Shown: positions 20,799-52,083 of the stretch, piece by piece | Position numbering within the stretch: position 1 is the first letter of the stretch | How the letters are laid out: every line of letters begins with the position of its first letter | Assembly: GCA_964607415.1 (NCBI GenBank) | Contig: CAZSKK010000001.1 | Location: 492,939-556,938, forward strand | Length of the DNA stretch: 64,000 nucleotides | Reading direction: 5' to 3' | Origin: an uncultured Candidatus Saccharibacteria bacterium | Lineage (GTDB): Bacteria; Patescibacteriota; Dojkabacteria; J137 | Notes under the pieces: generated by a model | What the model saw: only the letters and a program-made list of their open reading frames with translations | What the model was told of the DNA's origin: nothing | The model's database searches: none | Made by a program: the position numbers and the translations under genes

Positions 20799-20832
20799 GT
20801 ATCTGCTATCTGCTATCTGCTATCTGCTAAAC
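20799..20832. repeat. Heptamer microsatellite (TCTGCTA, about 4.5 units) in the thrS upstream region.
   Basis: agtatctgctatctgctatctgctatctgctaaac. Degenerate GCTATCTGCTAT-like strings also occur in other intergenic regions (around 500, 15020, 42040). Confidence 0.6.
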
Positions 20833-25850: not shown

Positions 25851-25944
25851 AGAGGCTCAAGTCTCGTCATTGAAATTCCTAAGTGTATAAATCCTACCCT
25901 CTGACTGCCGATTTCCAGCTCTATCCTCTGTCTTCTTTCAATAT

Positions 25945-26790: not shown

Positions 26791-26793
26791 TAT

Positions 26794-27498: not shown

Positions 27499-27508
27499 AG
27501 GTCTATAT

Positions 27509-28687
27509 TTAAATCATTAATATTCCTCGCATTATTGCTAAAGCCTGATCTTTATCTTCTCCAAATCTATTTCTTACACCTTCCACTTCATCATAGGTCT
27601 TTTCAAGCCAAGATTGTTGGTCTGTAGGGCCCATTTCGCTAAATGATCGATAATTACTTCCAGCCAATTCTAATAAGCTAGCTTTATTTCTAATTCTTTG
27701 CATAACTCCTCGATGAATTCTATTTCCATCCCTCTCATCTAAGCCTCCACCTGTTTGTGGACGCGCTCTCTCTCCATCAGCTGCTTGTTTTCTTGCTCTT
27801 AAATAATCCTGTTCAGCACCAGGTCCAAATACACTAACTTCTCTAGGTGGCACCGGGCCAGTTTCAGGATCACCAAGTTCAGGAATACCATAAGAGCGAT
27901 AGTCTGGTACCGTATGTATCTGGACGGTAGGATTATTTACAGCTGTTTCAGCTACTTGCGATGGCGGAGTATAATTACGAGTATTACCAGCTGCATCTGT
28001 ATATTGTGTAACAGTATACCCTGCTCTTCCTTCCAGTCCTGAATAAGGGCCGTAATAATCTCCGTCTGGACCTGTAGCATTTACATAAGTATCTGAGGAC
28101 AAAACTATACCAGGTAAAGTTTGATTTGACTGGTTAGTGTTTTCAGGTGTTTCAGCGTTAGCAGGACTCTCACCTTGCGAACTTAAATCGTTAGGCGGAG
28201 ATTCTTCTTCGATTAAATCAGGAGTTGGCATAAAATCACCTTTTTCTCCTTGTGGGTTTAGCTTATCTATTAGTGCCGGTTTTGAAGTATCCTCAATTAC
28301 AGTGGATGTTTTCTCCTCACTTTTAGTTCTTTTTGGGTGGTTTTCACTAATTTGTTTTTCAGCATCTTCCGGACTCACACCATGTTTTATAAGATCATTA
28401 AATTCTTCAAAAGCGGCTTGTCCGTAAGCTTGTCCTATTCTTTCAGCTGTATTGAAATATTCTGGTATTGCTGTCCCATTGGGTTGGCTGACATCTTCTC
28501 CAGGTTCTTCACTAGCTGATGCAGGTGGCTGCGATTGGGCAAATACTGCTTCTCCCTTACTAACATCACCAAACTCTGCACCTTCACTATTACGATTTGA
28601 TTTTAATGGTGGTGCAGGCGGTTCTTTATACCCAAGTACCGCTGGGAGACCTGCAGGTACAGGTTTAGGAATAAACTGTTCCGGCAA
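27509..28687 (-). CDS. Pro-rich hypothetical protein, most likely the frameshifted C-terminal continuation of the giant protein 28603..33546.
   Basis: The track start is TTG. The same frame stays open upstream to an in-frame TGA (plus strand tca at 28781-28783) and reads plausibly there (RKNCNIYDKVQQARAKRAFDDYDDALKNGTELPEQ). The giant ORF's last ~45 aa look like out-of-frame junk. Confidence 0.45.
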   Translation of the reverse strand: MPEQFIPKPVPAGLPAVLGYKEPPAPPLKSNRNSEGAEFGDVSKGEAVFAQSQPPASASEEPGEDVSQPNGTAIPEYFNTAERIGQAYGQAAFEEFNDLIKHGVSPEDAEKQISENHPKRTKSEEKTSTVIEDTSKPALIDKLNPQGEKGDFMPTPDLIEEESPPNDLSSQGESPANAETPENTNQSNQTLPGIVLSSDTYVNATGPDGDYYGPYSGLEGRAGYTVTQYTDAAGNTRNYTPPSQVAETAVNNPTVQIHTVPDYRSYGIPELGDPETGPVPPREVSVFGPGAEQDYLRARKQAADGERARPQTGGGLDERDGNRIHRGVMQRIRNKASLLELAGSNYRSFSEMGPTDQQSWLEKTYDEVEGVRNRFGEDKDQALAIMRGILMI

Positions 28688-31600
28688 TTCAGTACCATTC
28701 TTAAGTGCATCATCGTAATCATCAAAAGCCCGCTTTGCTCTTGCTTGCTGAACCTTATCATATATGTTACAGTTCTTCCTTCACCACTTATACTGGCAGG
28801 AGTTTGTCTTGCAGTTTGTGGCGGTAGTGCTTGCAGGTCAGCCACTGGAGGTGGAACTAGTTGGTTAATTATATTAGATGGGTTATTTACAATATTTATA
28901 GCCCTATCAAGTATTTGATTAATTTTTTCTGAATCTGTTGTAGGTATAATGTCAAAATCTCCATTATTGTATTCTATTTGAACAAAATCCTTGTCTCTTT
29001 TTACACTAGTAGGTAATTTAGGTTGGCCAATTATATTTTGTGGTGGCTGATCTGCTGTTCGTTTCACAGGTTTATAAGCAACGCCATTTCCCGTTACACG
29101 ATAAGCTCCATCAGGTATACGCTGACCAGCTTCAAGCATATAAATTTTTCTTACCTCTCCAGGGTATTGATAAAATATTTGCTCACCATTTTCATCATAA
29201 GCATCTTGTCTTAATGGAGGCCTAACTTTGTCATCACCTGCTCCCATTCCACCCCCTACTGGATGCGCTCCATCAGGTAAGGGATTATTGCTATTCCACA
29301 AAGTTTGTTGGCCATTAGGATATTGAATTGTAATGTACGGAGCTCCTTGTTCAACTGTAAAATTACTTGGTCCTTGTGTCTGTCTCAATGGTGGATTACC
29401 TACTGTTGCCTGATTGCCTGCTGTAGTCTGTGGAGGTACATACTGTCCACCAGGCGCAGGAACTTGATTAACTCCTGGTGGGAGTGGAATATTAGCAGGC
29501 CATGGTGCAACAGGACCTCCTGGCGCCTGATAGTAAATATAAGGTACAGGATTATTTGGCATTGCCTGAGGCGGAATACCAGTTGCCGGTTGTCCTCCTG
29601 GAGCTTGTGCTCCAGCTAATGGCTGTGGATTAAGATTTGCCTGACCATATAACGGCTGTAAAGCATTTACTAAATTAATTGCAGCATTTGGATCAGGAGC
29701 CTGAATTAACAATCCTCCACCAGGTGTAATTTGTACAACTACCCCTTGTGCAGGTGCAGGATTAGCTGCTGGATTTCCTGCCGCTACTCCGCCCCCAGCT
29801 CCTGGTTGTTGCTGTGCAATAATATTCAACATCTGCTGCATAATACCAGCCATTCCATTCATTGCGTCTGCAATTGGTGTTAAATCAACATTATTTGTTA
29901 TCTGGAAAGCTCCAGGCTGAATATTCATTTCATTATTAAAAGAATCAGTATTAGTATTATTACCGAAATTACTCATTGGCTGTGGTGGAACCACAACTGG
30001 TGCTGCCGCATTTCCTAAGCCACCCCCACCTGCTGCATTTGCATTAGCTGGTGGTTGTTGAGGAGGCTGTTGTTGCTGTTGCAGATTTTGCGGCGGAATA
30101 TTAGGTGGATTATTATTGCCTCGACCTCTACCAGTCCTGAAAATAGTTCTAGTTGCCAATGCCCCTAAAGCTCCTAAACCAATCAATGATAAACCTAGCA
30201 CGGCTGCTGCTTTAGTCAAATCTACATCACGCATTCTCTTCAAAAAATCATTTTCAGTAATCTCAACTAAAGCACCACCTTGATTATCAAAATACATTCC
30301 ATTAACCATTACAAGCTCCCCATCTTTAAATGCTCTAGACATGTATATTCCATTATTAGGATCTAATGGAACTCCATTTCCTCCGTAAATAATAGCTCCA
30401 TTTACACCGTCGTCAGAGTTTTCAGCCCAGTATAAAACTTGATCTCCATAGTTAACTTGTTGCCAATTTGTTTCATAGCCGGAAGCTTGAAGAGCCGCAA
30501 TAATTGCTGGATCATTGTGATGATCCCAAGGCATTATTGTTACAGTTATAGGCGCTCCACCAACTACCGGTGTATATGTAACTTCTACTGCTGGCATAAT
30601 TGGTGTACCTCCAGCTCCTATCAATCCTCCACCTGGTGTTATTACTCCTGCTCCCGCCGCTGGAACTCCAGGTAGTGCACCTGGTCCAACTACTCCTGGT
30701 GTTGCTGTAGCTGCATTTAATTTACCAACAGCTCCATCCCAAAAAGGATCCACATTTGTAGTTCCTGGATAATAATTTATAGCCATTGGACCTTCAGTGC
30801 CTGTGATTACACCGGTTTTGAAATCATTAACTAATGTATCTAATTTTGTTGTATCTGGAATAGCGCTCGTTCCTACACCACCTGTAAAATACTTCCCTGC
30901 ATTTACATCTGCATAAGTAGGACCAGCGGGATCTTGCCCTTGAACTATTCTCCTTGCTATATCTAGAGCTATTGCTTCCTTATCCGTTGGAGTCATCGAT
31001 GCGAACGCTGCTGAATCAAGCCCATAATCTTCAGGTCTAACTCCACCGTTCAAATCCGCTAGTACGTGTTGTGCAATAAAAACAGCTGTTTGGCGTTCAT
31101 TTTCAAAACTAGATCCTGCACCGGTAATCCAACTTACAACTGCTGGGCTTGTAGTACCATATCCACTACTTACTACTCCCGGTGCTGCTGCACCTGGGGC
31201 AGCTGGTGCTCCTACTGCTGGTCCGCCTACAAATCCTGGTGGCAAAGCACCTGCACTTGTTGGAGGCATCGTTATTGGTAGCCCAGCTGTACTAATTCCT
31301 CCTGGAGGAGCTAATACTAAACCTGAGGGTAATCCTGTAGGAAGTGGCATTCCTGCTGGACCGTAGTTTGGTATAGATCCATCAGCTGAATAAATCAAAT
31401 TTCCTACTATTGGTGTTCCTGCTACTGGCGCCGGGGCACCTGCGGGGATGCTTATATCAATAATGTACTGTACTTGCAATACGTCGTTGGCACCTGGCCC
31501 ATTTCTAAAAACTATATATTCTAAACCGGGGTCTGTGTCCATATTAGCCGCGAAAACCTGGTCGCCTCCGGGGATTACACCCAAACCTTCATGCCTCAAA

Positions 31601-33546
31601 GGTCCAAACCCTGCGGCAATAACTCCTCCTCCGGCTCCTTGAAGAGGTATCAATTGAGGACTTGGAGAGCGTTGATCTATAAATCCTAAAATGTGCCCAT
31701 CCCCATCCATAACTATTTCCATTGGAACATTTTGACCATCCGCAAAAACATTTATGTCTCCAAAGTGGGAGCCTTCCCTCACAACTTCCATTGGCGCTAT
31801 ACCATTATTAATTATCAAGTGCTCTTCAATTACGCCAGATCTTACATGTCCTCTCGGTATGCCCCACTTTAAAGGATCGTCAATTGGAACTGGGCCTCTT
31901 GGTGGTCCCTTTTCGAAAGGTTTTAAGTTTTCTAACTTTTCATCAAGTAAGTTTCCCTTCTCTCCTATTTCAACAGGGCTCTTAGTTGTTTCCTCAAAAC
32001 CCATAAATTCACCTGCTTTACCTCCTTTCCCTGGAGTTGGTAAACCAGGTCTACCTTTCGCTTGTGGTAAAAATTGTTCAAGTTGGTTTGGTTCATTATT
32101 ACTTCCCAAAGTAGTCTCAAGATTTTGCCTTACACCTCTAATTGAAAATTTGTCAAGAAAATCGTTTCCAACTAATTGAAATTGAACCAATAATGCCAAC
32201 GATCTCATTGCAGAAACATTTCTAGAAAAGTCTTTTTGAATATTTTCTATTTCTTTATTTTCATACCCTAATGCCTTTAGCCCTCTTGCGCCAACCATTC
32301 TAAACATTAAAACAGGTGCAAATGTTGATAAACTTCTTCTAACTGTCCAAGCCATTGCTCTATCTGCCATTCGAGATTTCATTACATCCAAGCCAAGCTT
32401 ATTTGCAAGGCTACCAGCTAAAATTCCACTCCCTTCACTAAAATATGTTCCTGGGAATAATAAAAATGCTGTAGCGGGCAAACTTAATACTGTAGAAGTA
32501 AAAAACTCTTTAAATGACCTATTACCATCTATTGCCCATTCCTTAACTCCTCCCAGCAAACGTTGAATTGGTAATCTTCCCCAATTTAACATTCTAGATA
32601 AATCTACAAATGCATTTTGTCCTGCAAGCTCCATTCCTTTTTGCGCACCTTTTTCCATAAACTTTGACATTTGAATTCCACCTCCGATCATTGCTGCGGC
32701 AGTTAACCCCAGCTCAATACCTTCACCAAGTGTTCTAATAGCATTCCTAGGAGACAAAACAATATTTTTAAATGTGCCAGCTAATCCCTCTCCTAAACCG
32801 GTGCTCTTTAGTATTTGTTTTCTTACAAGCTCAGATTCATCATTATCAATATTTAAATCTATTGCTTGCTTTTCTTTATTAAGTCTAATTTTAACTATAC
32901 CTTGTTCATTATTATCTTCTCTTTCAATATTAAGTTTTTCTCCCCATTTATAGTTTCCTTTTGTATATAAACCCATATATTTACGAATTCCAAGAATATC
33001 TTTAGTTGGATCTTCGTAAATACCAAAGTTCTCCATAAACTGCTTTTGCCTATTTAAAGCATTTATTAATGGAATGTTTTTTTGAATATTTCTGGGAAGT
33101 GATTCTATAGCTCTTCTAAAGCCACTCTTAGTCTGTTCTTCCTTTTCAAATTCATCCGCTAAAATTTCTGCAGCCACCCTCTCTTTAGTTTTTTCAGAAT
33201 CTTCAATTGTATATTCCTGGTATTCTAACTCCTTTGCATAATCACCGTTTCTTCTTCTGGTTAAAGCCAATTTGTCACCTTTTTTCAACAGCACAAAGTT
33301 TTGATCCTTTGCTTTTTTAACTAAAGCATCTACTTCTTCAGCAGTAAGATCGCCTATTTCAACTACTTTATTTTCTTTTTTTGCGAATCTATTTTTGGGA
33401 AGAATATCAGATACTTCTAAAAGTATCTGCCCTGCTTTTTGCTCAGAAGTTAGCATTGCCTCATTTTCCGGGGAGATTCCAGTATCAAGATTATCTGTAA
33501 TATCTATTGCTCCAGAAATTATTTGGTTTGGATCAGCATTACTCAT
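28603..33546 (-). CDS. Giant (1647 aa) surface or membrane-associated protein. It has a ~350-aa N-terminal domain, Gly-rich hydrophobic helices, a central globular region, one TM-like segment and a long Pro/Gln/Ala/Gly low-complexity tail.
   Basis: A single long ORF. Hydrophobic segments include GIELGLTAAAMIGGGIQM, FTSTVLSLPATAFLLFPGTYF and LGLSLIGLGALGALA. The DNA is locally GC-enriched from Pro/Gly/Ala codons. Overlaps the upstream gene by 8 nt. Confidence 0.6.
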   Translation of the reverse strand: MSNADPNQIISGAIDITDNLDTGISPENEAMLTSEQKAGQILLEVSDILPKNRFAKKENKVVEIGDLTAEEVDALVKKAKDQNFVLLKKGDKLALTRRRNGDYAKELEYQEYTIEDSEKTKERVAAEILADEFEKEEQTKSGFRRAIESLPRNIQKNIPLINALNRQKQFMENFGIYEDPTKDILGIRKYMGLYTKGNYKWGEKLNIEREDNNEQGIVKIRLNKEKQAIDLNIDNDESELVRKQILKSTGLGEGLAGTFKNIVLSPRNAIRTLGEGIELGLTAAAMIGGGIQMSKFMEKGAQKGMELAGQNAFVDLSRMLNWGRLPIQRLLGGVKEWAIDGNRSFKEFFTSTVLSLPATAFLLFPGTYFSEGSGILAGSLANKLGLDVMKSRMADRAMAWTVRRSLSTFAPVLMFRMVGARGLKALGYENKEIENIQKDFSRNVSAMRSLALLVQFQLVGNDFLDKFSIRGVRQNLETTLGSNNEPNQLEQFLPQAKGRPGLPTPGKGGKAGEFMGFEETTKSPVEIGEKGNLLDEKLENLKPFEKGPPRGPVPIDDPLKWGIPRGHVRSGVIEEHLIINNGIAPMEVVREGSHFGDINVFADGQNVPMEIVMDGDGHILGFIDQRSPSPQLIPLQGAGGGVIAAGFGPLRHEGLGVIPGGDQVFAANMDTDPGLEYIVFRNGPGANDVLQVQYIIDISIPAGAPAPVAGTPIVGNLIYSADGSIPNYGPAGMPLPTGLPSGLVLAPPGGISTAGLPITMPPTSAGALPPGFVGGPAVGAPAAPGAAAPGVVSSGYGTTSPAVVSWITGAGSSFENERQTAVFIAQHVLADLNGGVRPEDYGLDSAAFASMTPTDKEAIALDIARRIVQGQDPAGPTYADVNAGKYFTGGVGTSAIPDTTKLDTLVNDFKTGVITGTEGPMAINYYPGTTNVDPFWDGAVGKLNAATATPGVVGPGALPGVPAAGAGVITPGGGLIGAGGTPIMPAVEVTYTPVVGGAPITVTIMPWDHHNDPAIIAALQASGYETNWQQVNYGDQVLYWAENSDDGVNGAIIYGGNGVPLDPNNGIYMSRAFKDGELVMVNGMYFDNQGGALVEITENDFLKRMRDVDLTKAAAVLGLSLIGLGALGALATRTIFRTGRGRGNNNPPNIPPQNLQQQQQPPQQPPANANAAGGGGLGNAAAPVVVPPQPMSNFGNNTNTDSFNNEMNIQPGAFQITNNVDLTPIADAMNGMAGIMQQMLNIIAQQQPGAGGGVAAGNPAANPAPAQGVVVQITPGGGLLIQAPDPNAAINLVNALQPLYGQANLNPQPLAGAQAPGGQPATGIPPQAMPNNPVPYIYYQAPGGPVAPWPANIPLPPGVNQVPAPGGQYVPPQTTAGNQATVGNPPLRQTQGPSNFTVEQGAPYITIQYPNGQQTLWNSNNPLPDGAHPVGGGMGAGDDKVRPPLRQDAYDENGEQIFYQYPGEVRKIYMLEAGQRIPDGAYRVTGNGVAYKPVKRTADQPPQNIIGQPKLPTSVKRDKDFVQIEYNNGDFDIIPTTDSEKINQILDRAINIVNNPSNIINQLVPPPVADLQALPPQTARQTPASISGEGRTVTYMIRFSKQEQSGLLMITMMHLRMVLNCRNSLFLNLYLQVSQRYLGIKNRLHHH

Positions 33547-34027
33547 TCGATTTAGAACTTATTTGAATTTTATCTTCAATTTCTTTTTTTATTCTTTCTA
33601 AATATAAGCTTTCCAACTCATTCATATATTCGTTAAATTCTTTAACAAAATCTTCTTCCGGTTCATCTTTAAGTTTATCAACAATATGAGCCACAGTTTT
33701 ATAATGGCTCTCAATTGATTCAACCAAGCTGTCGAGAAAATCCGCAACAAGTTGATCAACATCTTTACTAGTTTTTTTATTAAAACAAAATGCAACATAT
33801 TGTTCAGTTTCAAAAGCATCGTATTCCCTAGCTTCTGACACCTCCTTCATAGCCTTCAGTTCTTCATTAGTAAAACCTGTTTCGTATAAATTTTCAATAA
33901 ATCTAGAAATAGTAGGCTCCAAAAACATAGCGAAATCTTCGATCTGCTTGCTATTATAGCCCATATCTTTCAAATGCTGCAAAAATCTTTCAGGTTTGGA
34001 CATATATAATGAAAATATCAACAGCAC
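33539..34027 (-). CDS. Acidic hypothetical protein, the first gene of the giant-protein operon.
   Basis: 162 aa, rich in Glu/Asp/Lys, helical. Confidence 0.5.
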   Translation of the reverse strand: MLLIFSLYMSKPERFLQHLKDMGYNSKQIEDFAMFLEPTISRFIENLYETGFTNEELKAMKEVSEAREYDAFETEQYVAFCFNKKTSKDVDQLVADFLDSLVESIESHYKTVAHIVDKLKDEPEEDFVKEFNEYMNELESLYLERIKKEIEDKIQISSKSNE

Positions 34028-34102
34028 GTAATATAAAAACGTAAATCTACGTCTTAGTACCAGTGTATAACTTTTTCAAAATGGCTGCAAATGGGAAAAG
34101 AA

Positions 34103-34176
34103 TCAGTTACGAATTACGATTTAGAAATTACGAGAAACAGAATCAATTACTAATTACGAGATCTGAATTACGAGAA
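34103..34176 (+). repeat. Array of AATTACGA(G/T) repeats (about 5 units, plus strand) immediately upstream of the four-helix-bundle gene.
   Basis: cagttacgaattacgatttagaaattacgagaaacagaatcaattactaattacgagatctgaattacgagaaag. Confidence 0.6.
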
Positions 34177-34316
34177 AGTATATTCTGAGAATTATAAGCT
34201 AGAAATTAAAAGTCGCTTTCAAAAAATTTACATAATGCTCTTGTATTTCGTAATTTATCTTCTCGTAGTCATTTATCTATGTTATTATTTATTGCCCCAC
34301 GAAAATTCCAGCAATT

Positions 34317-34679
34317 ATGAAATACAATATCCTTCAGGAAAAATCATTAGCTTTTTCTATTGAAATAATATCTTTTTGCAAGCTATTAAGAAATAATAAA
34401 GAATTTGTTCTTGCTGATCAACTATTAAGAAGCGGAACTTCTATTGGTGCCAATGTAGAAGAAAGCATAGGAGCAGCTTCTACAAAAGACTTCTTATCTA
34501 AATTGACTATCGCATATAAAGAAGCACGTGAATCCAAATACTGGTTAACACTTATAGATAAATCTTTTCCAGAATGCGCAGATCAAGTGCTACAGCTATT
34601 AAATGCTAATGAAGAGCTTCTTAAAATAATTGGAACGATCCAAATAAAAACTAAATCAAGAATTAGACCTCGAGATTAA
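34317..34679 (+). CDS. Four-helix-bundle protein (23S rRNA intervening-sequence protein family).
   Basis: LLRSGTSIGANVEESIGAASTKDFLSKLTIAYKEARESKYWLTLI matches the family signature. Confidence 0.75.
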   Translation: MKYNILQEKSLAFSIEIISFCKLLRNNKEFVLADQLLRSGTSIGANVEESIGAASTKDFLSKLTIAYKEARESKYWLTLIDKSFPECADQVLQLLNANEELLKIIGTIQIKTKSRIRPRD

Positions 34680-34689
34680 TACCTAAACA

Positions 34690-34842
34690 TATCTCGTAAT
34701 TCATAATTGTTAACTGCAAATCTACTCTCGTAATTCGTACTTCGTACCTGACAACCTCCCCTCGTAATTCTTATTTCGTAACTGGCAATCTCCCCTCGTA
34801 ATTCGTACTTCGTAACTCGTAATTGCACATGCTATACTTTTA
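34690..34842 (-). repeat. Array of CTCGTAATTC repeats (the reverse complement of GAATTACGAG; about 6 units) immediately downstream of the four-helix-bundle gene.
   Basis: atctcgtaattcat...ctctcgtaattcgtacttcgtacc...cccctcgtaattcttatttcgtaactgg...cccctcgtaattcgtacttcgtaactcgtaattgc. Confidence 0.6.
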
Positions 34843-34844
34843 CC

Positions 34845-36200
34845 ATGACTTTAGACGACGCAAAACAGATCCTAAACAAAAAGGGCTTAAGCCGCGAAAC
34901 AGTGGAAGCTATTTCTGTTTTTAAAAACGAGCCAGTTTGGATGAAAGAACTACGACTTAAAGCTTTTGATCACTATTCCGAAAGACCAGTTCCAACATGG
35001 GGTGCAAATCTTTCTGCTTTTGATGATTCACAAATCCAGTTTTATGTAACCCCAGAATCTAAAAAAACTAGAAGCTGGGATGAAGTTCCAGAAGACATGA
35101 GAAACACATTTGACAGGCTTAAAATTCCTGAAGCAGAGAAAAAATACCTGGCCGGAGTTGAAACACAATTCGATTCAAACGTTGTTTACGGAAGAATGAA
35201 GGAAAAGTGGGAAAGTAAAGGCGTCATTTTTACAGATTCAGACACAGGATTGCGCGAACATGAAGAGATTTTTAAAAAATGGTTCGGCAAAGCAATTCCA
35301 TATACTGATAATAAATACGCAGCACTTAATACAGCATGTTGGAGTGGCGGTAGCTTTGTTTACGTTCCAAAGGGAGTTAAAGTTGAAATCCCTCTTCAAG
35401 CTTACTTTTATATTCAAACTCAAAATCTTGGTCAGTTTGAACGAACTTTAATAATTGCAGATGAAGGTGCTGAAGTTCAATATGTTGAAGGCTGCAGCGC
35501 TCCAACTTATTCATCAGACATTCTTCACTCAGGAGTAATTGAATTGATTGCACAAAAAAATGGAAGGATTAGGTACACAACAATTCAAAACTGGTCCAAG
35601 AATGTTTACAACCTGGTAACTCAAAGAGGCCTTGCATATGATGACGCAACGATAGAATGGGTTGATTGCAATTTAGGATCACAAGTTACTATGAAATATC
35701 CTTCAGTGATTTTGGCTGGTGCCAGAGCACATGGTGAGGTTTTATCTATAGCACTTGCAGATGGTAAACAACATTTGGACACTGGAGCCAAAATGATTCA
35801 TATTGGTAGAGACACAAGTGGGATAATTACAACAAAATCTATTTGCAAAAATGGTGGTAGAACTAGTTATAGAGGGCTTGTTAAAGTTGCAAAAAACGCA
35901 AAAAATGCGAAGACAAAAATCAAATGTGATGCCTTAATTTTAGATAATATTTCTCAAACAGATACTTACCCATATAACGAAATCTACGAAAGATCATCCC
36001 GAATAGAACACGAAGCAACTGTAAGTAAAGTTTCTGATAATCAGCTTCATTACTTAATGAGTAGGGGTTTATCGGAAGAGGAAGCCGCAGGATTAATAGT
36101 TTCAGGGTTTGTAGAACCAATTGCAAAAGAACTTCCAATGGAATACGCAATGGAGATGAACGAGCTGATTAAACTTAGCATGGAAGGAAGTGTGGGGTAA
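34845..36200 (+). CDS. sufB: Fe-S cluster assembly protein SufB.
   Basis: FVYVPKGVKVEIPLQAYF...GAEVQYVEGCSAP...NWSKNVYNLVTQRG...RTSYRGLVKV...GFVEPIAKELPMEYAMEMNELI is characteristic of SufB. Confidence 0.8.
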   Translation: MTLDDAKQILNKKGLSRETVEAISVFKNEPVWMKELRLKAFDHYSERPVPTWGANLSAFDDSQIQFYVTPESKKTRSWDEVPEDMRNTFDRLKIPEAEKKYLAGVETQFDSNVVYGRMKEKWESKGVIFTDSDTGLREHEEIFKKWFGKAIPYTDNKYAALNTACWSGGSFVYVPKGVKVEIPLQAYFYIQTQNLGQFERTLIIADEGAEVQYVEGCSAPTYSSDILHSGVIELIAQKNGRIRYTTIQNWSKNVYNLVTQRGLAYDDATIEWVDCNLGSQVTMKYPSVILAGARAHGEVLSIALADGKQHLDTGAKMIHIGRDTSGIITTKSICKNGGRTSYRGLVKVAKNAKNAKTKIKCDALILDNISQTDTYPYNEIYERSSRIEHEATVSKVSDNQLHYLMSRGLSEEEAAGLIVSGFVEPIAKELPMEYAMEMNELIKLSMEGSVG

Positions 36201-36310
36201 ACTTCGTTCCTACCATTTATTCTCCATTTTCATCTTACTAACCAAATCCTCCCGCTTTTTGTCAGAAATTTGTATTGCAATACAATGCGGCCATAAAGTA
36301 ATTTTGGTAG

Positions 36311-36562
36311 ACTTACCAGATGATTCGATGTGGAAGGTCTATTACAGCTAATATCGCTGAAGCTTATGGGCGTTTCGGATTTAAAGACAGCAGAAGAATA
36401 TACATATTTGCTCGAGGATCCATGTTTGAGCTTAAAGATCATCTGAACGTAGCAATCGAAAACGAGTTTATTTCTCTAACCGAATTTAATGAATCAATAA
36501 CGATATTAATTAGGAAATTGAATGCTTATTTAAAATATCTTGGAAGAAAATCCTTTGACTAA
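36311..36562 (+). pseudogene. N-terminally truncated fragment of a second four-helix-bundle protein gene.
   Basis: TYQMIRCGRSITANIAEAYGR...IFARGSMFELKDHLNVA matches the C-terminal two thirds of the family. In-frame TAA and TAG stops at 36299-36310 close the frame upstream, so the N-terminal helix is missing. Confidence 0.55.
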
Positions 36563-36595
36563 TTAACTTTTTCACAAATTAACTAGTTAACGTTT

Positions 36596-38536
36596 ATGAA
36601 AATCATCCCACTAACCTTAGTTTTCGCTGTATTGTTTACATTAATTTCAGTCAAACTTTACGCACAGGAGATTCGGCCTCAAACACTCTTCATCACCGAA
36701 TTCTTCCCAAACCCAGAAGGATCTGATTCTGGCAAGGAATGGGTGGAACTTTTTAACAACTCTGACGAGACAATAACTTATACAAATCTGGAAATAGTAA
36801 CAATATCTGCTGCAGGAAACGAAAGGATTACCAGTATTTCTGAAATTACAGTTGAACCTTTTTCTTATTTTTTGATTTTGGAAAGTGCTAACATTGCGCC
36901 TGATTTTACTCAGAAATTAGTTGTAGGGGATGGAATGCTTAATTTATATAATGATGGCCAATTCATAAGGCTACAAGATAGGCAAAATAATATTCTGGAT
37001 GAAATTGAATACTCCACTACACCTTCGGCAAAATCATGGGAACGCAATGGGATTTCTGATATTGAAGGATGTAACTTACTTGATCTTCATTTAAGTTCTA
37101 ATTCTATCGGTATTCCAAATACTAACTTCGAAGATTCCTGCTGGGGAGAACAAATTCTCGATCCTGAGCCCGAACCTGTTAATGCTGAAATACTTTTTAG
37201 CTCCGATAATGTTAGCTTTGCTAATTCGATCTACACACTTTCTGGGCAACAAATTTACCTAGATTTCACAATGGATTCTACTCTGGAAGTTACGGATTAC
37301 ATATACTATTTGGATGATGGGACACAAGTTTATTCTCCGTTTTCAAGCGGAAATTATGTTAACCGCCCGATAAATTTACAAGTAACGCTCGAAAATAATG
37401 AAATTCACAATTTTCAAAGCCTTCCAATAAGTATTTTCCCAATAATTAATCTTAATGAGTATAGCTTTGAAAATAATCAAAATCTAATAGAAGTTTTTAA
37501 TCCAAATGCGTTTGATATCATGCTTTCAAACTATCAGTTAGCAGGCTTTGCAATTCAAGAAAACACTTGCTCCACAATTATTAACCCTAATAGCTTTTGC
37601 GTCATAACAATTCCAGAATCCTTAAATGAAATTACTTTACAAGTTGGTGATTTAATAATAGAAACTTTGCAATCTGATAGTTTGAAAGCATCTTTTTTTG
37701 AAGGTAGCTGGTACTCGGATTTCGAAAATTCTTTAGGAGCTGAAAACTTACCCCCTAGTACTTTAATAATAAATGAAATTTATCCATCCCCGAATTCAGG
37801 CGAAAAAGAGTGGATCGAAATTTACAACTATGGAAATTTTGCACTAGATCTTAAAAATTATTATTTAAAAGATAAAGTAAGTTCTGGTGGATTTGGCACA
37901 ACCAAGAGTTTCCTTCCTAATATTATTTTAAAACCGGATCAATATTATGTTGTAAATGATTTTGATTTAAAAATATCTCTTAATAATTCAGGTGATCTGA
38001 TAGGTCTTTTTAACCAAAATGATAAGCTACTGAATGAAGTTGAATATCCCGAAATTCCTAAAGGTATGTCTTACTCAAGAATTAATAATGAATTTGTTAA
38101 ATCGTACAAGTCAACTCCAGGCTTTATTAATGAAATCATATCGCAACCAATAGCGTCACTAGCCCCAAAGAAATCCACAACTTCTCCCTCTGTAAAAAAA
38201 GAGCCCAAAGTTGGTACAAATAATATAAACCCTTCATCTCAAGTTCTTGGTACCCAAGAAACAAGTTTTAAATTACCTGATTTGGTTATGCACAACAACA
38301 AAGATGCTTCAAGAACTCAAATACAATACGAAATTAATCTTTGGCCAGTTCAACTTTTTATGCTTTTTATTTTTAGCATCAGTTTGTGGCTAATAAGTCC
38401 TAGTTTTAGGAAAAAAACAATAAGGACAATTTGCATTATAAGGAATTTTTTTAAAACGCTTGATACGATGGAATATAAGGCCGCTAAACAAAATACTGAG
38501 TTTTCCAAAGCATCAAGATATGAGGTATTTGCTTAG
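36596..38536 (+). CDS. Secreted, C-terminally TM-anchored protein with two lamin-tail-domain (LTD) modules.
   Basis: Signal peptide. LTD motifs TEFFPNPEGSDSGKEWVELFNNSDETI and INEIYPSPNSGEKEWIEIYNYGNFALDL. C-terminal hydrophobic anchor FMLFIFSISLWLI. Confidence 0.6.
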   Translation: MKIIPLTLVFAVLFTLISVKLYAQEIRPQTLFITEFFPNPEGSDSGKEWVELFNNSDETITYTNLEIVTISAAGNERITSISEITVEPFSYFLILESANIAPDFTQKLVVGDGMLNLYNDGQFIRLQDRQNNILDEIEYSTTPSAKSWERNGISDIEGCNLLDLHLSSNSIGIPNTNFEDSCWGEQILDPEPEPVNAEILFSSDNVSFANSIYTLSGQQIYLDFTMDSTLEVTDYIYYLDDGTQVYSPFSSGNYVNRPINLQVTLENNEIHNFQSLPISIFPIINLNEYSFENNQNLIEVFNPNAFDIMLSNYQLAGFAIQENTCSTIINPNSFCVITIPESLNEITLQVGDLIIETLQSDSLKASFFEGSWYSDFENSLGAENLPPSTLIINEIYPSPNSGEKEWIEIYNYGNFALDLKNYYLKDKVSSGGFGTTKSFLPNIILKPDQYYVVNDFDLKISLNNSGDLIGLFNQNDKLLNEVEYPEIPKGMSYSRINNEFVKSYKSTPGFINEIISQPIASLAPKKSTTSPSVKKEPKVGTNNINPSSQVLGTQETSFKLPDLVMHNNKDASRTQIQYEINLWPVQLFMLFIFSISLWLISPSFRKKTIRTICIIRNFFKTLDTMEYKAAKQNTEFSKASRYEVFA

Positions 38537-38546
38537 ATGCTAAAAT

Positions 38547-39080
38547 ATGGAGTTTGAAACCGAAAATATGAGAATAAAAATAAATCTTTTTGAACCAAAA
38601 TTAAAAACAGAGGTGAGCATTCTAGGTAAATTATATAAAATTGAATATTCAGATAAATACTTTCTAAAGCCTAAGGTTTATTTTAAAGACAATAGAATTA
38701 TTGTTCATACATCAGAGCTCCAACCTAAAAGCTACCATACTGTTTTAAAAAAATTCCTTCTAGAGTTTAGTAAAAAAGAAATTAAAAACAGAGTTGAAAA
38801 TATAGCTTTTGAAAATGGTTTTGAATATAACAATATAGCAATTAGAGATCAATCAACAAGGTGGGGAAGCTGTTCATCAAAAAAGAACCTGAACTTTAAC
38901 TGGAGATTAATTTTTGCTCCAGAAGATATTCTAGATTATGTGATTGTTCATGAACTTTGCCATTTAAAAGAAATGAATCATTCTAAGAAATTTTGGGATT
39001 TAGTTGGCAGTATTGCTCCTAATTATAAACAGAACCGATTATGGCTTAGGGAAAATGGATCGAAGCTTCGAATTGAGTAG
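38547..39080 (+). CDS. YgjP-like (DUF45 / M48 family) zinc metallohydrolase.
   Basis: RWGSCSS...FNWRLIFAPEDILDYVIVHELCHLKEMNHS, with the HExxH motif. Confidence 0.6.
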   Translation: MEFETENMRIKINLFEPKLKTEVSILGKLYKIEYSDKYFLKPKVYFKDNRIIVHTSELQPKSYHTVLKKFLLEFSKKEIKNRVENIAFENGFEYNNIAIRDQSTRWGSCSSKKNLNFNWRLIFAPEDILDYVIVHELCHLKEMNHSKKFWDLVGSIAPNYKQNRLWLRENGSKLRIE

Positions 39081-39111
39081 CTGTATTTACAATAAAATCA
39101 CATACACTTTT

Positions 39112-40245
39112 TTAATCACCAATCCTCTTTCTAAACATAAACAATAAACCTGCAAATAATGACAGCGCTCCGATTATATAAAAATACGGAAGATTATCAG
39201 CAACACCTGTGGAAGGAAGATTAGAATTATTAGATGTATTTGTTCCTGTGTTTGTATTAGTGTTAGTATTTGTATTGTTTGAGCTCCCAGCTAAAATTGT
39301 AAATGTATCTGTATTACAAACACTACCATTTAAAAAGCAACTGGCAGAGTAATTACCTGCCGCTGAAAGAGTTACATTTCTTACCTCATTAGTACTATAG
39401 TTAACGATACTACCACTTGGTGAAGTTAAGATAATACTAGCTCCAGTTAAAAGTGCAGCACCATTTTCTGTAAAACAATTTATATGAAAACTACTTGCTG
39501 GAGTTCGTAAATTCATGGCTGAAACCTGTGCTCCACTCATCCAAGCACTAATGGTTCCTTGCTCAAACTGAATATCAGCGCCAGCACATCCACTAGCAGT
39601 TGAAACTGCATTATCTAACCCTCCACAGTATGTGTTTATAAATACTTCACTTGCTGTTAGCTCATTTACATCTTGGTCATAAAATTCAGTACAAAATGCC
39701 TTACCAATATTTGCTTTTGACCCATCTGGACAGGTTATACAAGCAAGGTTCAAATCTCGGTCACATTCATCATTATTTGCTGTAACTAAATCAGAATCAC
39801 AACTTTCACCTTCATCTTTAATTTCTGAATAACCCGAAGTATCACAATCGGTGGAACAATTTGTTACTGATTCACCTGATTCGCAAATAGCATCACCATC
39901 GCAAACTGAAGCATTGTCGCTGCATGCTGAGCACTCGCCTTTATTACATGCTTCGGTTCCAGCTGTAAAATCACCATCGTAATTTGAACAGGCTGAATCT
40001 GAACAACAAGTTGTTGTTTCACCTGAAGTATCCTTGTCTTTATCACTCCTAGATTGCAAAGCTATATACGTTGAGATCGCAATAAGCCCAAAAGTTACCA
40101 TCGTCAGAACTATTATTGCAGCTACTCTTTTCGACTCCTGAACCTTAATTCTGGAAAGATTGGGATTCAATCTTGGAGGATCAACCGGCTGATTAGCAAA
40201 GCCATTTGCTTCGTTTATTTTTTGAATATCAGCTTCGGGATTCAT
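39112..40245 (-). CDS. Cys-rich surface protein with an N-terminal signal anchor, an (NT)n repeat and a C-terminal LPXTG-type sorting signal.
   Basis: C-terminus NLPSTGVADNLPYFYIIGALSLFAGLLFMFRKRIGD: an LPSTG motif, a hydrophobic segment and a positively charged tail. No sortase gene is present in the window. Confidence 0.55.
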   Translation of the reverse strand: MNPEADIQKINEANGFANQPVDPPRLNPNLSRIKVQESKRVAAIIVLTMVTFGLIAISTYIALQSRSDKDKDTSGETTTCCSDSACSNYDGDFTAGTEACNKGECSACSDNASVCDGDAICESGESVTNCSTDCDTSGYSEIKDEGESCDSDLVTANNDECDRDLNLACITCPDGSKANIGKAFCTEFYDQDVNELTASEVFINTYCGGLDNAVSTASGCAGADIQFEQGTISAWMSGAQVSAMNLRTPASSFHINCFTENGAALLTGASIILTSPSGSIVNYSTNEVRNVTLSAAGNYSASCFLNGSVCNTDTFTILAGSSNNTNTNTNTNTGTNTSNNSNLPSTGVADNLPYFYIIGALSLFAGLLFMFRKRIGD

Positions 40246-40439
40246 ATTAAAACGATACTAAAAATAGCAAAAGAACACAAGAAGCCAGAAAACAAAGCTC
40301 AGATTATTCTAATTTACTTAAATATTCTAGTCGAATTTTCAAGAAACAATTTTACAATTTCCCAAATATGACATTGAAAATTTTTTTAATTGTAAATTGT
40401 TATTTAAATCTTCAAACGTCCTACGCCTAGCTCCAAACG

Positions 40440-41885
40440 CTATTCATCAAACTTCTCAAACAAAATCCCTGTTTGTCTATTTTTTAACATTTGTTCAGCT
40501 TTTTCGGAACTTTCAGGAATTATTGGCTTAAAAAGAATAATTACTCTTTCTATTAAATAAATAAGATTTTTTATCACCTGTTCAGAATCAACGCTTTCTT
40601 TGCTCCAAGGTTGCTTTTCTGTTATATATTTATTAGCAAACCTTGTTAATTCGTTAATTTGTTCTATTGCTTCAAATACTTCAAAATTTTCAAAATGTTG
40701 GTGATATTTATTTTCAGCTTCTTCAATCTTTGTTAAAACATCTTTATCAACCAAAGATTTGTTTACTTCTCCAATGTTTTTTTTATTAGAAAGATGAATA
40801 ACCCTATTTATAAGATTTCCCCACTGATCTGCAAGTTCCGTTTGATACTTAACTTTAAGCCTTTCAATGCTAAAATCACCATCATTTCCTATTTGAAATT
40901 CCGATAGCAATGCATACCTAACTGCATCAATCCCAAACTCATTTGCTAGATCCACAGGGCTTATTGCGTTTCCGTTGCTTTTGCCAATTTTCAAGCCATT
41001 TACCGTAAAGAATCCTGTTACCAAAATATGCTTTGGTATTTCCAATCCTGCAGACTTTAACATTGCAGGCCATAAAATTGCATGAAATTTTAGAATATCT
41101 TTTCCTACAACATGTGTAACATTGTCTGGCCAAAATTTTTCGGGATATCCTTCCTTTTTGTTTTCTGCAAAATGTAAATATGAAAGATAGTTAGGCAAGG
41201 CGTCATACCAGACATAAATTGTCTGTTCATGATCGAAAGGAACGGGAATTCCCCATTTTACATTAGCTCTAGTTACAGGAATATCTTGAAGTCCAGCTTT
41301 AACAAAGTTTTTTACAAATTCAGCCCATTTTGCAGGTAGAATAAAATCTGGATGTTCTTCGTAATATTCTAAAAGCCAATTTTGATATTTTGACCATCGA
41401 AAGTAGTAGTTTTTTTCCTTTGTATATATTGGAGTTTTTGTAGGATGGTTAGGGCATTTACCATCTACAAGATCAGCTTCACTATAATACGCTTCACAAC
41501 TTTGGCAATACCAACCTTCGTAAGATCCTTCATAAATATCACCATTGTCAAATGATTTTTGAAGTAAATCCTGCGCAAATTTTTCATGCTCAGGATGTGT
41601 GGTTCTCATAAAATAATCATTTGTTATCTTTGTTTTGCTCCAAATTTCTTTGTACGCTTCAGCGTAATCATCAACATACTCGGTAGGAGTTTTACCTTCA
41701 TCAGAAGCTTTTGTCGCAATATTTGCTCCGTGCTCATCTGTACCTGTTAAAAAAAGAGTCTCTGCTCCTTGAATTCTTGCGTATCTTGCAAGTGTATCCG
41801 CAATAAAAACGCAATAGGCAGTTCCAATATGCGGAAGTCCAGTTGGATAAAAGATTGGCGTTGTGACATAAAAATTCTTGTTCAT
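40440..41885 (-). CDS. metG: Methionyl-tRNA synthetase, short form.
   Basis: HIGH region (PTGLPHIGTAY), TGTDEHG, and a KMSKS-like GLKIGKS. Confidence 0.9.
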   Translation of the reverse strand: MNKNFYVTTPIFYPTGLPHIGTAYCVFIADTLARYARIQGAETLFLTGTDEHGANIATKASDEGKTPTEYVDDYAEAYKEIWSKTKITNDYFMRTTHPEHEKFAQDLLQKSFDNGDIYEGSYEGWYCQSCEAYYSEADLVDGKCPNHPTKTPIYTKEKNYYFRWSKYQNWLLEYYEEHPDFILPAKWAEFVKNFVKAGLQDIPVTRANVKWGIPVPFDHEQTIYVWYDALPNYLSYLHFAENKKEGYPEKFWPDNVTHVVGKDILKFHAILWPAMLKSAGLEIPKHILVTGFFTVNGLKIGKSNGNAISPVDLANEFGIDAVRYALLSEFQIGNDGDFSIERLKVKYQTELADQWGNLINRVIHLSNKKNIGEVNKSLVDKDVLTKIEEAENKYHQHFENFEVFEAIEQINELTRFANKYITEKQPWSKESVDSEQVIKNLIYLIERVIILFKPIIPESSEKAEQMLKNRQTGILFEKFDE

Positions 41886-41962
41886 GTTAGTAAGTTAAAA
41901 GTTAAATGTTTAAGGTTAAGTGCAGAAACCAGACAACAAAGACTAGAGATCAAGACGTAATA

Positions 41963-42015
41963 GTTAATTGGTCGACAACGTTTAATTAGTAAGATGAACT
42001 AATTAACAAATTAAC
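41963..42015. promoter_or_regulatory. TTAATTGG / TTAATTAG motif pair in the metG upstream region.
   Basis: gttaattggtcgacaacgtttaattagtaag is almost identical to 51269-51298 (gttaattggcttacgtttaattagtagtg). Confidence 0.35.
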
Positions 42016-42085
42016 GACGAATACCTATAACCTACTGTAGCACTAAATGCTAATCGCTATCTGCTTTACGCTATTCGCTTGCTTT

Positions 42086-42114
42086 AAAAAACAAAAAATC
42101 CTCTTTTGGAGGAT
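42086..42114 (-). terminator. Intrinsic terminator on the minus strand ending the ~330-nt 3' region of 42440..42889.
   Basis: Minus strand: stem GAGGAT/ATCCTC with loop CAAAA, then TTTTTTGTTTTTT. Confidence 0.55.
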
Positions 42115-42273
42115 CTAAAAACAAAAAATGGATGAGCCTCCTAGTATCATTACAGGATTTGCATCATCATTTTTTGGCTATTTGCTTTTATTTGCATAGG
42201 TTGATTATAGCCGAAACTAATAGTACTGCGCAACAGCCTCTCCATGTTTTCACTTCGTTCAAACTTCCCTCTC

Positions 42274-42439
42274 CTGAGATCGAAACAACATTTTATGTTG
42301 TTGAGCAAACTAACACTATTAGGTCTTAAAACCATTTCTCACTGTGAATGTATGATTCACTGTTCGTGCTGTCGAATGTAGCTAATTTTATTCTCGACAG
42401 GATAATATCCTGTCTCGGGGTGACCGTGGGCCGGTGAGG
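42274..42439 (-). repeat. Copy B of the structured repeat element: a GC-rich motif abutting the stop codon, then TACATTCGACAGCAC, palindrome GTGAATCATACATTCAC, a 37-nt spacer and hairpin GCTCAACAACATAAAATGTTGTTTCG. Possible ncRNA or 3' UTR structure.
   Basis: Matches copy A (5543-5657) in all three sub-elements and in spacing. There is an additional hairpin gagacaggatattatcctgtc. Confidence 0.5.
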
Positions 42440-48321: not shown

Positions 48322-48393
48322 GTTAATTGGTTAATTCGTTCTGGGTTAATTGGTGTCCACAAATTAACTTCTTCTCCGTTAACTAATTAACCA
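48322..48393. promoter_or_regulatory. TTAATTGG motif cluster upstream of pheT.
   Basis: agttaattggttaattcgttctgggttaattggtgtcc ... aaattaact ... gttaactaattaacc. Confidence 0.35.
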
Positions 48394-48429
48394 CTTTATT
48401 GCCCCAAAAACCTCTAGCCTGTCTTGCTC

Positions 48430-50567: not shown

Positions 50568-50644
50568 TGTTTGATGTTAAGTAAACAAGTGAAAAATTTT
50601 GTAATTTAAATAAATTTAGTTTAATTTCTAATCTTTAATCTTTT

Positions 50645-51324: not shown

Positions 51325-52083
51325 CTAAACCATTTTTCCACTTACCATTTCATGAACAAAATCAGGTTTTAGATATTCCTGGACTTTATCGTAATGGGTA
51401 ATTATTATGAAAGCAATTTCAGGATTTATTTTCCTAAAATTTGAAAGCCCTTCAAAAACATCTTGAATTGATTGCTTATCTAAACCTGAATCTATTTCAT
51501 CTAAGAATGCATACCTTGGTTCAAGAATCAGAAACTGTAAAATTTCAGTTTTTTTCTTTTCACCGCCCGAAAAACCTTCATTAAGGTTTCTAGTTAAAAG
51601 ATGTTTGGGATACTTTATAAGTTCTGCTCTTTCCTCTAGAAATTTTTTAAATTTAAATACAGGAAGTTGCTCTTCTTTTGGCTTACGATTATTGTAAATC
51701 AACCGCAAATAACTAATTAGATTAACACCCGGGATTTCTGTTGGGTATTGATTGGCAAGATATAATCCGGCAAAGGATCTTTCGTTTGGCTCAAGTATAG
51801 AAATATCGATATCAAAACTATCCCCTTCATTTTTTTTAAAAGCTTCAGGATTTATTTTCTCTACTTCCAGCCTTGAGTATTTTTCATGAATTAATTTTAT
51901 TGTACCAGATGTTTTTTCAAAAGATGGGTTTGCCATCACAACATTAAAAAAGCTGCTTTTGCCTGACCCATTTCTTCCATTTACAAGATGTACTTGGCCC
52001 TTATCCGCCAAAAGATTTACATCACTTAGAATAGTCTTCCTACCTTCAATCAATTTTGCTGACAGATTTTTTACTTCAAACAT
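51325..52083 (-). CDS. sufC: Fe-S cluster assembly ATPase SufC.
   Basis: Walker A (GRNGSGKSS), NQYPTEIPGV, LLTRNLNEGFSGGEKKKTEILQ, LDEIDSGLD, ITHYDKVQEYLKPDFVH. Confidence 0.85.
   Translation of the reverse strand: MFEVKNLSAKLIEGRKTILSDVNLLADKGQVHLVNGRNGSGKSSFFNVVMANPSFEKTSGTIKLIHEKYSRLEVEKINPEAFKKNEGDSFDIDISILEPNERSFAGLYLANQYPTEIPGVNLISYLRLIYNNRKPKEEQLPVFKFKKFLEERAELIKYPKHLLTRNLNEGFSGGEKKKTEILQFLILEPRYAFLDEIDSGLDKQSIQDVFEGLSNFRKINPEIAFIIITHYDKVQEYLKPDFVHEMVSGKMV

Follow-up and report, generated by a model that had tools for sequence, protein, structure and literature searches.

The window analysed here, 64,000 nt of a Candidatus Dojkabacteria genome (candidate phyla radiation, CPR), contains just 5' of sufB a small four-helix-bundle gene lying between two arrays of tandem heptamers that are inverted with respect to each other. 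We interpret this element as a cassette of the kind known from the intervening sequences (IVS) of 23S rRNA, here located outside rRNA, and give this interpretation a probability of roughly 0.55. Membership of the gene in the 23S rRNA IVS protein family, the complementarity of its heptamer arms, the recurrence of this layout around homologues in other genomes, a consistent polarity of the arms relative to the open reading frame (ORF), slippage within the arms and turnover of cassettes at the flanks of sufB are all directly established. Most probably the element does not belong to Fe-S cluster biology and is a selfish or commensal module that moves slowly.

The initial annotation had called the gene at 34317-34679 a four-helix-bundle gene of the 23S-IVS type, and this assignment holds, with matches to PF05635 (E 3e-20, 72.8 bits against a cut-off of 33.8), to TIGR02436 (E 6e-26, 90.8 bits against a cut-off of 24) and to PDB 2RLD (E 1e-22). 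The 2RLD entry has five chains, and by this match the protein is predicted to adopt a four-helix-bundle fold and to assemble as a pentamer. It has 4208 homologues, the top non-self match being 65% identical. The residues of its motif Q35-L-L-R38-S-G-T-S42-I-G-A-N46-V-E-E49 (R-x3-S-x3-N-x2-E) are invariant or nearly so in the homologue alignment, and the motif corresponds to the family signature (G/Q)xxRxxxSxxxNxxE that PMC3936711 quotes from Lin 2006. About 20 residues in all are invariant in this alignment, and the protein is clearly constrained.

The arms were detected through the 9-mer AATTACGAG, which together with its complement occurs in 10 exact copies in the 64 kb where 0.33 are expected, a number reached in none of 100 shuffles. 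Eight of these copies fall in two mutually inverted arrays on either side of the gene (Table 1), three on the plus strand upstream (34126, 34152 and 34166, spanning 34126-34174) and five downstream in the form CTCGTAATT (34693, 34727, 34761, 34795 and 34816, spanning 34693-34824). If one mismatch is tolerated in an 8-mer, the counts rise to 6 units upstream (34105-34173) and 10 downstream (34694-34824). The flanking inverted arrays proposed initially are confirmed. Tandem Repeats Finder describes them as a 40-nt unit repeated 2.1 times at 34095-34177 and a 34-nt unit repeated 3.7 times at 34693-34817, but both are composed of heptamers (TTACGAA/TTACGAG and variants) that are grouped into these higher-order units, and they are by a wide margin the top-scoring repeats of the window. 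A degenerate third unit extends the 5' arm to 34213, and the 3' arm terminates in CTCGTAATTG, 20 nt ahead of the sufB start codon. The 5' arm is separated from the ORF by a 141-nt spacer, which may house a promoter of the cassette's own and holds one reverse-oriented unit, TCGTAATT at 34248-34255, that the initial annotation did not mention. In short-read assemblies made independently from the same strain, two Logan contigs (L007 and L008) start in this spacer just past the upstream array, at 34240 and 34264, which fits the array being repeated or difficult to assemble. A 14-nt direct repeat, TAACTTTTTCA(A/C)AA, at 34068-34081 and 36564-36577 encloses the cassette, sufB and a second family member beyond it; it may be due to chance or may be a trace of the whole block having moved as a single unit. 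An Rfam scan of 33500-37000 gave no match to an RNA family.

Table 1. Coordinates of the cassette, its arms and the associated genes in the 64,000-nt window.
Feature	Position	Strand	Description
5' arm	34096..34175	+	two 40-nt units; heptamers TTACGAA, TTACGAT, TTAGAAA, TTACGAG and similar
Reverse-oriented short unit	34244..34268		TATTTCGTAATT...TCTCGTAG, between 5' arm and ORF
Intact four-helix-bundle gene	34317..34679	+	23S rRNA-IVS protein/Avd-like, 120 aa
3' arm	34690..34825		reverse complement of 5' arm; 3.7 x 34 nt (CTCGTAA TTCGTAC TTCGTAC CTGACAA CCTCCC)
sufB	34845..36200	+	TIGR01980, 658 bits; host gene between two cassette sites
Relic of second four-helix-bundle cassette	36242..36562	+	80-aa ORF 36320-36562, lacking helix 1
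sufC	51325..52083	-	TIGR01978, 217 bits

The same enclosure is found around most of the relatives of this gene. Scanning metagenome contigs gave 80 loci encoding proteins 47-66% identical to the window's, 73 of which were usable for counting heptamers, and an in-phase AATTnnnAATT is present within 250 nt on both sides of the gene at 63 of these 73 subfamily loci, compared with 14 of 101 control segments; this supports the view of the gene with its inverted arrays as a discrete cassette-like unit. AATTAC is favoured upstream (152 versus 52) and GTAATT downstream (133 versus 19), and the inverted repeat score is at least 30, equivalent to at least 15 perfect pairs, in 55 of 77 loci. Typical arms measure 16-30 nt, or 2-4 heptamers, and an arm length of 35 nt, which would have matched a pentamer with a heptamer (5 x 7), is not supported. 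Their periodicity is specific: self-identity of the flanks peaks at a lag of 7 (0.66-0.67 upstream and 0.56-0.57 downstream, compared with 0.38-0.39 in controls), while other lags remain at about 0.4. The 3' arm usually begins at the stop codon of the ORF, and in the alignment the common C-terminus ...RNS* appears to be readable from the repeat itself, as CGT AAT TCG TAA. We also considered whether the 3' arm supplies stop codons in three frames, which would suit arms of the AATTACG type but not the pyrimidine-rich CTGTCAC or CCCTTTT arms, and for this reason the idea was abandoned.

What is conserved across phyla and GC contents is the period and the arrangement, and the sequence of the unit is specific to the lineage. 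The lag-7 peak also appears around distant relatives (31-53% identical) in viral contigs, where the units include TTTGTAA, GTAATGA/CTCATTA, CAATTGA/TTGTCAA, GAGTTAG/CTCCTAA, AAATAGA/TTTTCTA, AAGAAAT/CTCTTAC and GGATTGC/CAATCCG (within L240-L260). On finished plasmids, inverted arms of period 7 or 8 are present at no fewer than 8 of 12 sampled genes, with examples from Nostoc, Anabaena 90, Geminocystis, Picosynechococcus, Stanieria, Riemerella, Azospirillum, Gemmatirosa and Leptolyngbya. Two further plasmid genes have period-7/8 arrays on both sides, in direct orientation in Pseudanabaena (AAAAGCT x16 and AAAAGCC x10) and as non-complementary units in Nostoc PCC 7120. Within the subfamily, positions 34107-34134 of the window match exactly, over 28 nt (TTACGAATTACGATTTAGAAATTACGAG), the 5' arm of loci in unrelated hosts (L226 2972-2999; also L227-L229), and this segment includes two rare heptamer variants in identical order, whereas the proteins are 57% identical and the ORFs roughly 65% identical in DNA.

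If generic heptameric simple sequence repeats (SSRs), produced by polymerase slippage or serving as elements of 5' untranslated regions, merely happened to flank a small gene, then the layout would be a coincidence, and the abundance of such repeats gives this idea some footing. The window holds 13 period-7 and 9 period-8 tandem arrays of at least 3 copies, against about 0.3 expected of each, and practically none at other periods (among them 386-511, 12199-12256, 16893-16922, 20800-20829, 41892-41919, 48322-48454, 50009-50042, 50620-50643 and 56588-56611). Most of these are intergenic and end just 5' of a start codon in sense orientation, as does (TCTTTAA)n ahead of an FKBP gene (50046) and a signal peptidase gene (50645), and in this position they resemble the TAACTGA repeats of Beggiatoaceae. 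Such excesses are known elsewhere: heptameric SSRs of the TAACTGA type are reported from Beggiatoaceae, Cyanobacteria and Bacteroidetes (PMC4679880), and over-represented heptamers occur in Xanthomonas (GGGAATC) and Nostoc (GGGGA(C/T)T), with paired convergent arrays that number 70-75 inverted pairs in Xanthomonas (PMC4692102). Likewise, more than 120 loci from many phyla match a three-copy pattern of the same heptamer as in our cassette, where chance was estimated to yield fewer than one, although some matches are unrelated longer-period or coding repeats (L011, L024, L028 and L066). Most long AATTACGAG arrays stand alone, 94 of 98 lacking a family gene within the 8 kb examined. As only 4 of the 98 adjoin a family member, the gene predicts the arms but the arrays do not predict the gene, and long AATTACGAG arrays do not serve as markers of four-helix-bundle genes. 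On the other hand, coincidence would not place the same type of heptamer in the same inversion at 63 of 73 homologues in unrelated hosts, nor repeat the inverted layout and its polarity with other heptamers around distant members, nor make the two arrays that are mutually complementary also the strongest by far in the window. We therefore regard a chance juxtaposition as quite improbable.

The orientation of the arms with respect to the gene is also far from random. At 42 loci of the subfamily the sense strand is purine-rich in the arm preceding the ORF, and at 3 loci in the arm following it; in independent subfamilies the ratio is 21 to 5 (p=0.0025). This is informative because inverting the ORF between its arms would leave the arrangement itself unchanged, and a consistent polarity therefore indicates a constraint linked to transcriptional direction and not to a symmetric DNA end. 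One exception is a viral contig (L247 2850-3480, protein 42% identical) with CGTAATT x4 upstream and TTACGAA x4 downstream, in which AATTACG-type arms are swapped. The arms also change in length by whole units: among strains with an identical protein, the 3' arm differs by one heptamer (7 nt) in L227 and L236, and the 5' arm by three (21 nt) in L237.

Elsewhere, cassettes of this family fit tightly among the co-directional genes of operons, without a recombinase. The gene upstream has the same direction at 61 of 68 loci, as does the gene downstream at 52 of 68, and the median gaps of about 38 nt upstream and about 25 nt downstream are mostly occupied by the arms. ORF calling tends to underestimate the downstream gap, which in several cases is confirmed by the canonical N-terminus of the following protein (e.g., MNITEISIKRP of AcrB). 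The host operons encode RND efflux, type I restriction-modification, two-component, ABC and cas systems, and gene orders such as cas6-4HB-cas4, cmr2-4HB-cmr3, hsdR-4HB-hsdM and MFP-4HB-AcrB (4HB, the four-helix-bundle gene) were seen in plasmid and metagenome relatives including L267, L270, L273 and L230. On Riemerella plasmids (L272) a family member lies directly 3' of an iron-sulfur cluster assembly accessory gene. In the window, the neighbour upstream of the cassette is divergent, so the cassette is not within an operon.

Two further claims of the initial annotation concern sufB and its surroundings. The positions it gave, with sufB between two family members and sufC 15 kb away, are correct, with the amendment that sufC lies on the minus strand. 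Its proposal that insertion and recombination of cassettes had rearranged the suf locus survives only in part. The named sequences that best match the SufB of the window come from Candidatus Dojkabacteria. In four contigs from relatives (L212-L215), which carry three distinct SufB 79-81% identical to the window's, sufB is solitary as well, with no sufC within 10 kb and neither a four-helix-bundle gene nor a heptamer array at either flank. This is the outcome of a synteny comparison that had been named in advance as contradicting the proposal, and the cassettes did not separate sufB from sufC: since relatives free of cassettes share the solitary sufB, the separation predates the cassettes. The finding means little for the suf genes themselves. 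The sufC gene barely exceeds the TIGR01978 cut-off (216.9 against 212.8 bits), and its match is broken into two parts, pointing to an insertion or to divergence of the N-terminal half.

What does stand is local turnover together with one adjacent inversion, both visible in comparison with a closer Dojkabacteria relative (L211) whose SufB protein is 98% and whose sufB DNA is 89% identical to the window's. The upstream array is present in L211 too, and homology stops exactly at window position 34176, the inner end of that array. Beyond this point L211 has another four-helix-bundle gene, 33% identical and on the opposite strand, with arms of its own (CAAAGnn/nnCTTTG), and at the site after sufB it has an intact 116-aa gene of a third kind on the other strand, with ATGTTTG/CAAACAT arms and 35% identity to the family member at that site in the window. 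Two sites in two close genomes thus hold four unrelated cassettes. A block containing an LTD-domain gene and a YgjP-like metallopeptidase gene is inverted between the two genomes (window 36596-39080, L211 6481-7279), one of its breakpoints coinciding with the second cassette site. Since four unrelated cassettes fill the two sites and the adjacent block is inverted, turnover and local rearrangement at the flanks of sufB are real, and the array is itself a breakpoint. On the minus strand at 28603-33546 there is a 1647-codon ORF with low-complexity stretches of Pro, Gly, Ala and Gln and no recorded Pfam match, which is kept in the close relative at about 82% DNA identity.

The family member past sufB had been described as a truncated second copy of the first. 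It is indeed truncated, its matches (50.6 bits to PF05635 and 54.9 bits to TIGR02436) covering only the last three quarters of the profile, within positions 31-108 and, for PF05635, at 35-95 only, and in-frame stops at 36299-36301 and 36308-36310 close it upstream, with weak in-frame similarity (…AFCQKF…) persisting 5' of them. But the two genes are only 24% identical and belong to different subfamilies, and no recognisable arms surround the second (36311-36562), which accordingly represents another cassette, now decayed to a relic, and does not duplicate the first. A local hidden Markov model built from the 120 best homologues found only the window's own subfamily and missed this second gene, and Pfam scans and tblastn were used instead. 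The perfect palindrome TTGTATTGCAATACAA at 36259-36286, 3' of sufB and 5' of the relic, falls within the best promoter-like site of the region; L211 carries it upstream of sufB, at about 4619-4636, and it may be a candidate operator or promoter that travelled with the rearrangements.

Turnover of this sort might be expected of a non-autonomous DNA transposon resembling a miniature inverted-repeat transposable element (MITE), with the arrays acting as terminal inverted repeats (TIRs) for a transposase encoded elsewhere and with recombination between elements reshaping the suf locus. Inverted termini of the form CAATTA...TAATTG are frequent, the cassettes at the two shared sites differ between the window and L211, with an inversion beside one of these sites, and the Logan contigs break next to the array, all of which would agree with such an element. 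The traces that transposition should leave were not found. Direct repeats flanking 49 relatives average 1.39 nt, compared with 1.51 ± 0.12 nt in permuted pairs, and thus give no sign of a target-site duplication, with the proviso that a palindromic AATT duplication is indistinguishable in this test from the arm itself. No transposase, integrase or reverse transcriptase (RT) is present among 136 genes neighbouring homologues or within 15 kb of the cassette in the window, and three proteins that were each found on 14-23 contigs always occur in one genomic context, so no recent transposition was seen. Variation in the length and sequence of arms through slippage is unlike the ends that a transposase binds, the polarity of the arms is unexpected for a symmetric DNA end, and the separation of sufB from sufC is older than the cassettes.

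Nor was a clean empty site found among relatives of a Saprospiraceae M1 peptidase gene that precedes one cassette. In relatives that are 78-80% identical, the junction after the peptidase is filled by other repeats, by degenerate heptamers or by inverted (TAATTAA)n arms without an ORF, whereas in a lineage 75-80% related a cassette follows this peptidase gene. Arm pairs of this last kind, without a four-helix-bundle ORF, lie at L264 3910-4345 and L265 3842-4500, and in L265 the segment between the arms is tandemly duplicated. The idea of a mobile cassette with terminal inverted repeats can therefore be retained insofar as it describes a discrete cassette-like unit with a shared layout and with turnover in L211; a classical non-autonomous transposon is unsupported, because there is no target-site duplication, no neighbouring recombinase and no protein in two contexts, and we consider it improbable.

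If the element is instead an IVS-type cassette, its properties can be compared with those of the rRNA elements one by one. Complementary termini are predicted: in the RNA fold of 34090-34835, both the minimum free energy structure and the centroid pair 34104-34203 with 34721-34825 through 66 pairs, with a mean pairing probability of 0.72, and the two arms are calculated to form a duplex at about −62 kcal/mol and to cofold at −63.5 kcal/mol, compared with −33.7 ± 3.5 kcal/mol when an arm is shuffled. Tandem heptamers of variable copy number, as in the IVS of Coxiella, are present in the form of the arms, together with the 7-nt and 21-nt indels among relatives with identical proteins. Insertion into rRNA is the property that is missing, as the element sits between a divergent protein-coding gene and sufB.

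Under this interpretation, transcription reading through the element would allow the arms to pair as a long imperfect stem with the ORF in its loop, a stem that would also sequester the ORF's purine-rich leader. As in the 23S rRNA IVS of Coxiella, Leptospira and Salmonella, RNase III would be expected to cut this stem. The cassette has in common with those elements its protein family, inverted repeats at the termini and, in the case of Coxiella, heptamers 5' of the ORF. The cut would free the four-helix-bundle mRNA or silence it, and would fix where the sufB message begins. The arms would lengthen and shorten through replication slippage and, being repeats, would be the sites at which cassettes are exchanged and adjacent DNA is inverted. 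Co-transcription of the arms, cleavage by RNase III and any effect on sufB are inferred.

Several observations weigh against this interpretation. A scan for promoters and terminators found no consensus promoter and nothing else of use 5' of the upstream arm, where the neighbouring gene is divergent, and if the promoter lies in the 141-nt spacer, then the 5' arm would be untranscribed and no RNA stem would form. Mismatches between arms are G·U about as often as A·C (51 versus 48) and hence give no sign of selection for pairing in the sense-strand RNA. The stem in the window is AT-rich and imperfect, with complementarity at about 72% of 83 aligned positions, and we know of RNase III cleavage solely in elements borne on rRNA. 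In addition, the rarity of four-helix-bundle genes near long arrays of the same heptamer (4 of 98) and the many other period-7/8 arrays beside start codons in this window indicate that heptamer arrays also exist independently of cassettes.

A different account, which is compatible with the stem, is a partnership between protein and repeat similar to that in REPtrons. Here the arrays would be putative binding sites, in RNA or DNA, of the pentameric protein, with the gene lying between its own sites for autoregulation or with the protein creating, maintaining or spreading the arrays, and the solo arrays would be further targets. The unit differs by protein subfamily while its period and layout are kept, as expected if protein and sites co-evolve, and the 28-nt arm segment shared between hosts with 57%-identical proteins shows the arm to be more conserved than the ORF. 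The constraint on the protein and the abundance of solo arrays of the same heptamer in the same phyla would also fit, as would the inclusion in the family of Avd, which is essential for the retrohoming of diversity-generating retroelements (DGRs; PMC10053308). Yet co-inheritance of ORF and arms would produce the same correlation without any binding, the arms typically have only 2-4 heptamers and favour no 35-nt length, the arrays of the window comprise about 10 types of heptamer for two four-helix-bundle genes in 64 kb, and 94 of the 98 long AATTACGAG arrays lack such a gene. A partnership of this kind seems to us unlikely.

DGRs are common in CPR bacteria, and Avd binds both nucleic acid and RT. 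If the gene of the window were the Avd accessory gene of such a retroelement, a possibility raised by the assignment of Avd to PF05635 (PMC10053308), then an RT gene and a pair of template and variable repeats should lie nearby. No RT Pfam match occurs among the genes called in 25177-42421, several of which have no match at all; in 20000-50000 no repeats other than the two arrays reach 35 nt, leaving no template/variable pair; and none of the 136 neighbours of homologues is an RT. For this locus a DGR is refuted, unless its RT and repeat pair are encoded elsewhere and work in trans, and we consider an Avd role there highly improbable.

Returning to the IVS-type cassette, we think that its wider interest lies in joining two puzzles, that of the IVS protein family and that of heptamer repeats, through the habitual enclosure by inverted heptamers, the fixed polarity and the covariation of array sequence with gene lineage. 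The protein family is very large and, to our knowledge, has been given no function since the early 1990s outside DGRs; we likewise know of no explanation for the origin of rRNA intervening sequences, or for the excess of intergenic heptamers that has been described repeatedly in bacteria. It is tempting to suppose that PF05635 genes and inverted arrays of 7-8 nt form one widespread module, found in CPR bacteria, Bacteroidota, Cyanobacteriota, Gemmatimonadota, Pseudomonadota and contigs classed as viral, of which the rRNA IVS would be a special case that landed in rRNA, whose protein would recognise period-7 repeats and which would be a source of the heptamer SSR excess; so sweeping a proposal can be put forward only tentatively, and the odds are against it. 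In any case, the arms offer a simple sequence signature for locating such cassettes and a caution for annotation, as arrays of this kind can break assemblies and their regular spacing may pass for CRISPR-like repeats.

Much of this has precedents: the gene family, the rRNA IVS, the relation to Avd, the occurrence of members in cas operons and heptamer repeats including the inverted pairs of Xanthomonas are already known. In the literature open without subscription, to which our full-text search was confined, we found no report of the habitual enclosure in inverted heptamers with fixed polarity or of IVS-type cassettes in protein-coding operons, and no link between PF05635 genes and flanking heptamer arrays beyond the description of the Coxiella IVS.

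Among mobile elements, the TIRs of the cassette resemble those of MITEs, but target-site duplications and identical elements in several copies, which MITEs would show, were not found among the relatives examined. REPtrons, which combine repetitive extragenic palindromic (REP) sequences with a RAYT gene, likewise have a single gene with a short repeat on both sides in inverted orientation, the same repeat being dispersed over other intergenic regions. The shared plan is an analogy only, since the protein here has no HUH, other nuclease or transposase domain, in contrast to RAYT and MITE systems, and the repeats are tandem heptamers and not palindromic REPs. Avd of DGRs (PDB 4DWL) is a small basic pentameric four-helix bundle of the same fold family (PF05635/cd16375), but no RT, template or variable repeat is near our gene, and heptamer arms are not a described feature of DGRs.

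Free-standing TIGR02436 genes in cas and restriction-modification operons, of which 18 "four helix bundle protein" genes were noted in cas loci (PMC3936711), show the same small gene wedged among co-directional genes that we see in the relatives of the cassette, although the earlier reports mention no flanking repeats. Heptameric SSRs, also called short tandemly repeated repetitive sequences, share with our arrays their intergenic position, often a few nucleotides from start codons, and a copy number that varies among relatives. Studies of them describe arrays without a link to a gene family (neither PMC4692102 nor PMC4679880 mentions S23, and the latter does not contain "four helix"), whereas here an inverted pair surrounds one specific family.

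The closest likeness is to the 23S rRNA IVS with an S23p/PF05635 ORF, known from Leptospira, Coxiella burnetii, Brucella and Haemophilus, which has the same protein family in its loop and a TIR stem. The cassette of the window differs in being intergenic, upstream of a protein-coding gene, and in having arms that are arrays of about 80 and 135 nt, compared with a compact stem of 28 bp. In Coxiella, RNase III cleaves that 28-bp terminal inverted-repeat stem around the S23p ORF, just 5' of which lie 2-3 tandem heptamers (GACAGAT) whose number varies among strains (PMC4990558); this variation in heptamer copies is matched by the 7-nt indels in the arms of our cassette's relatives.

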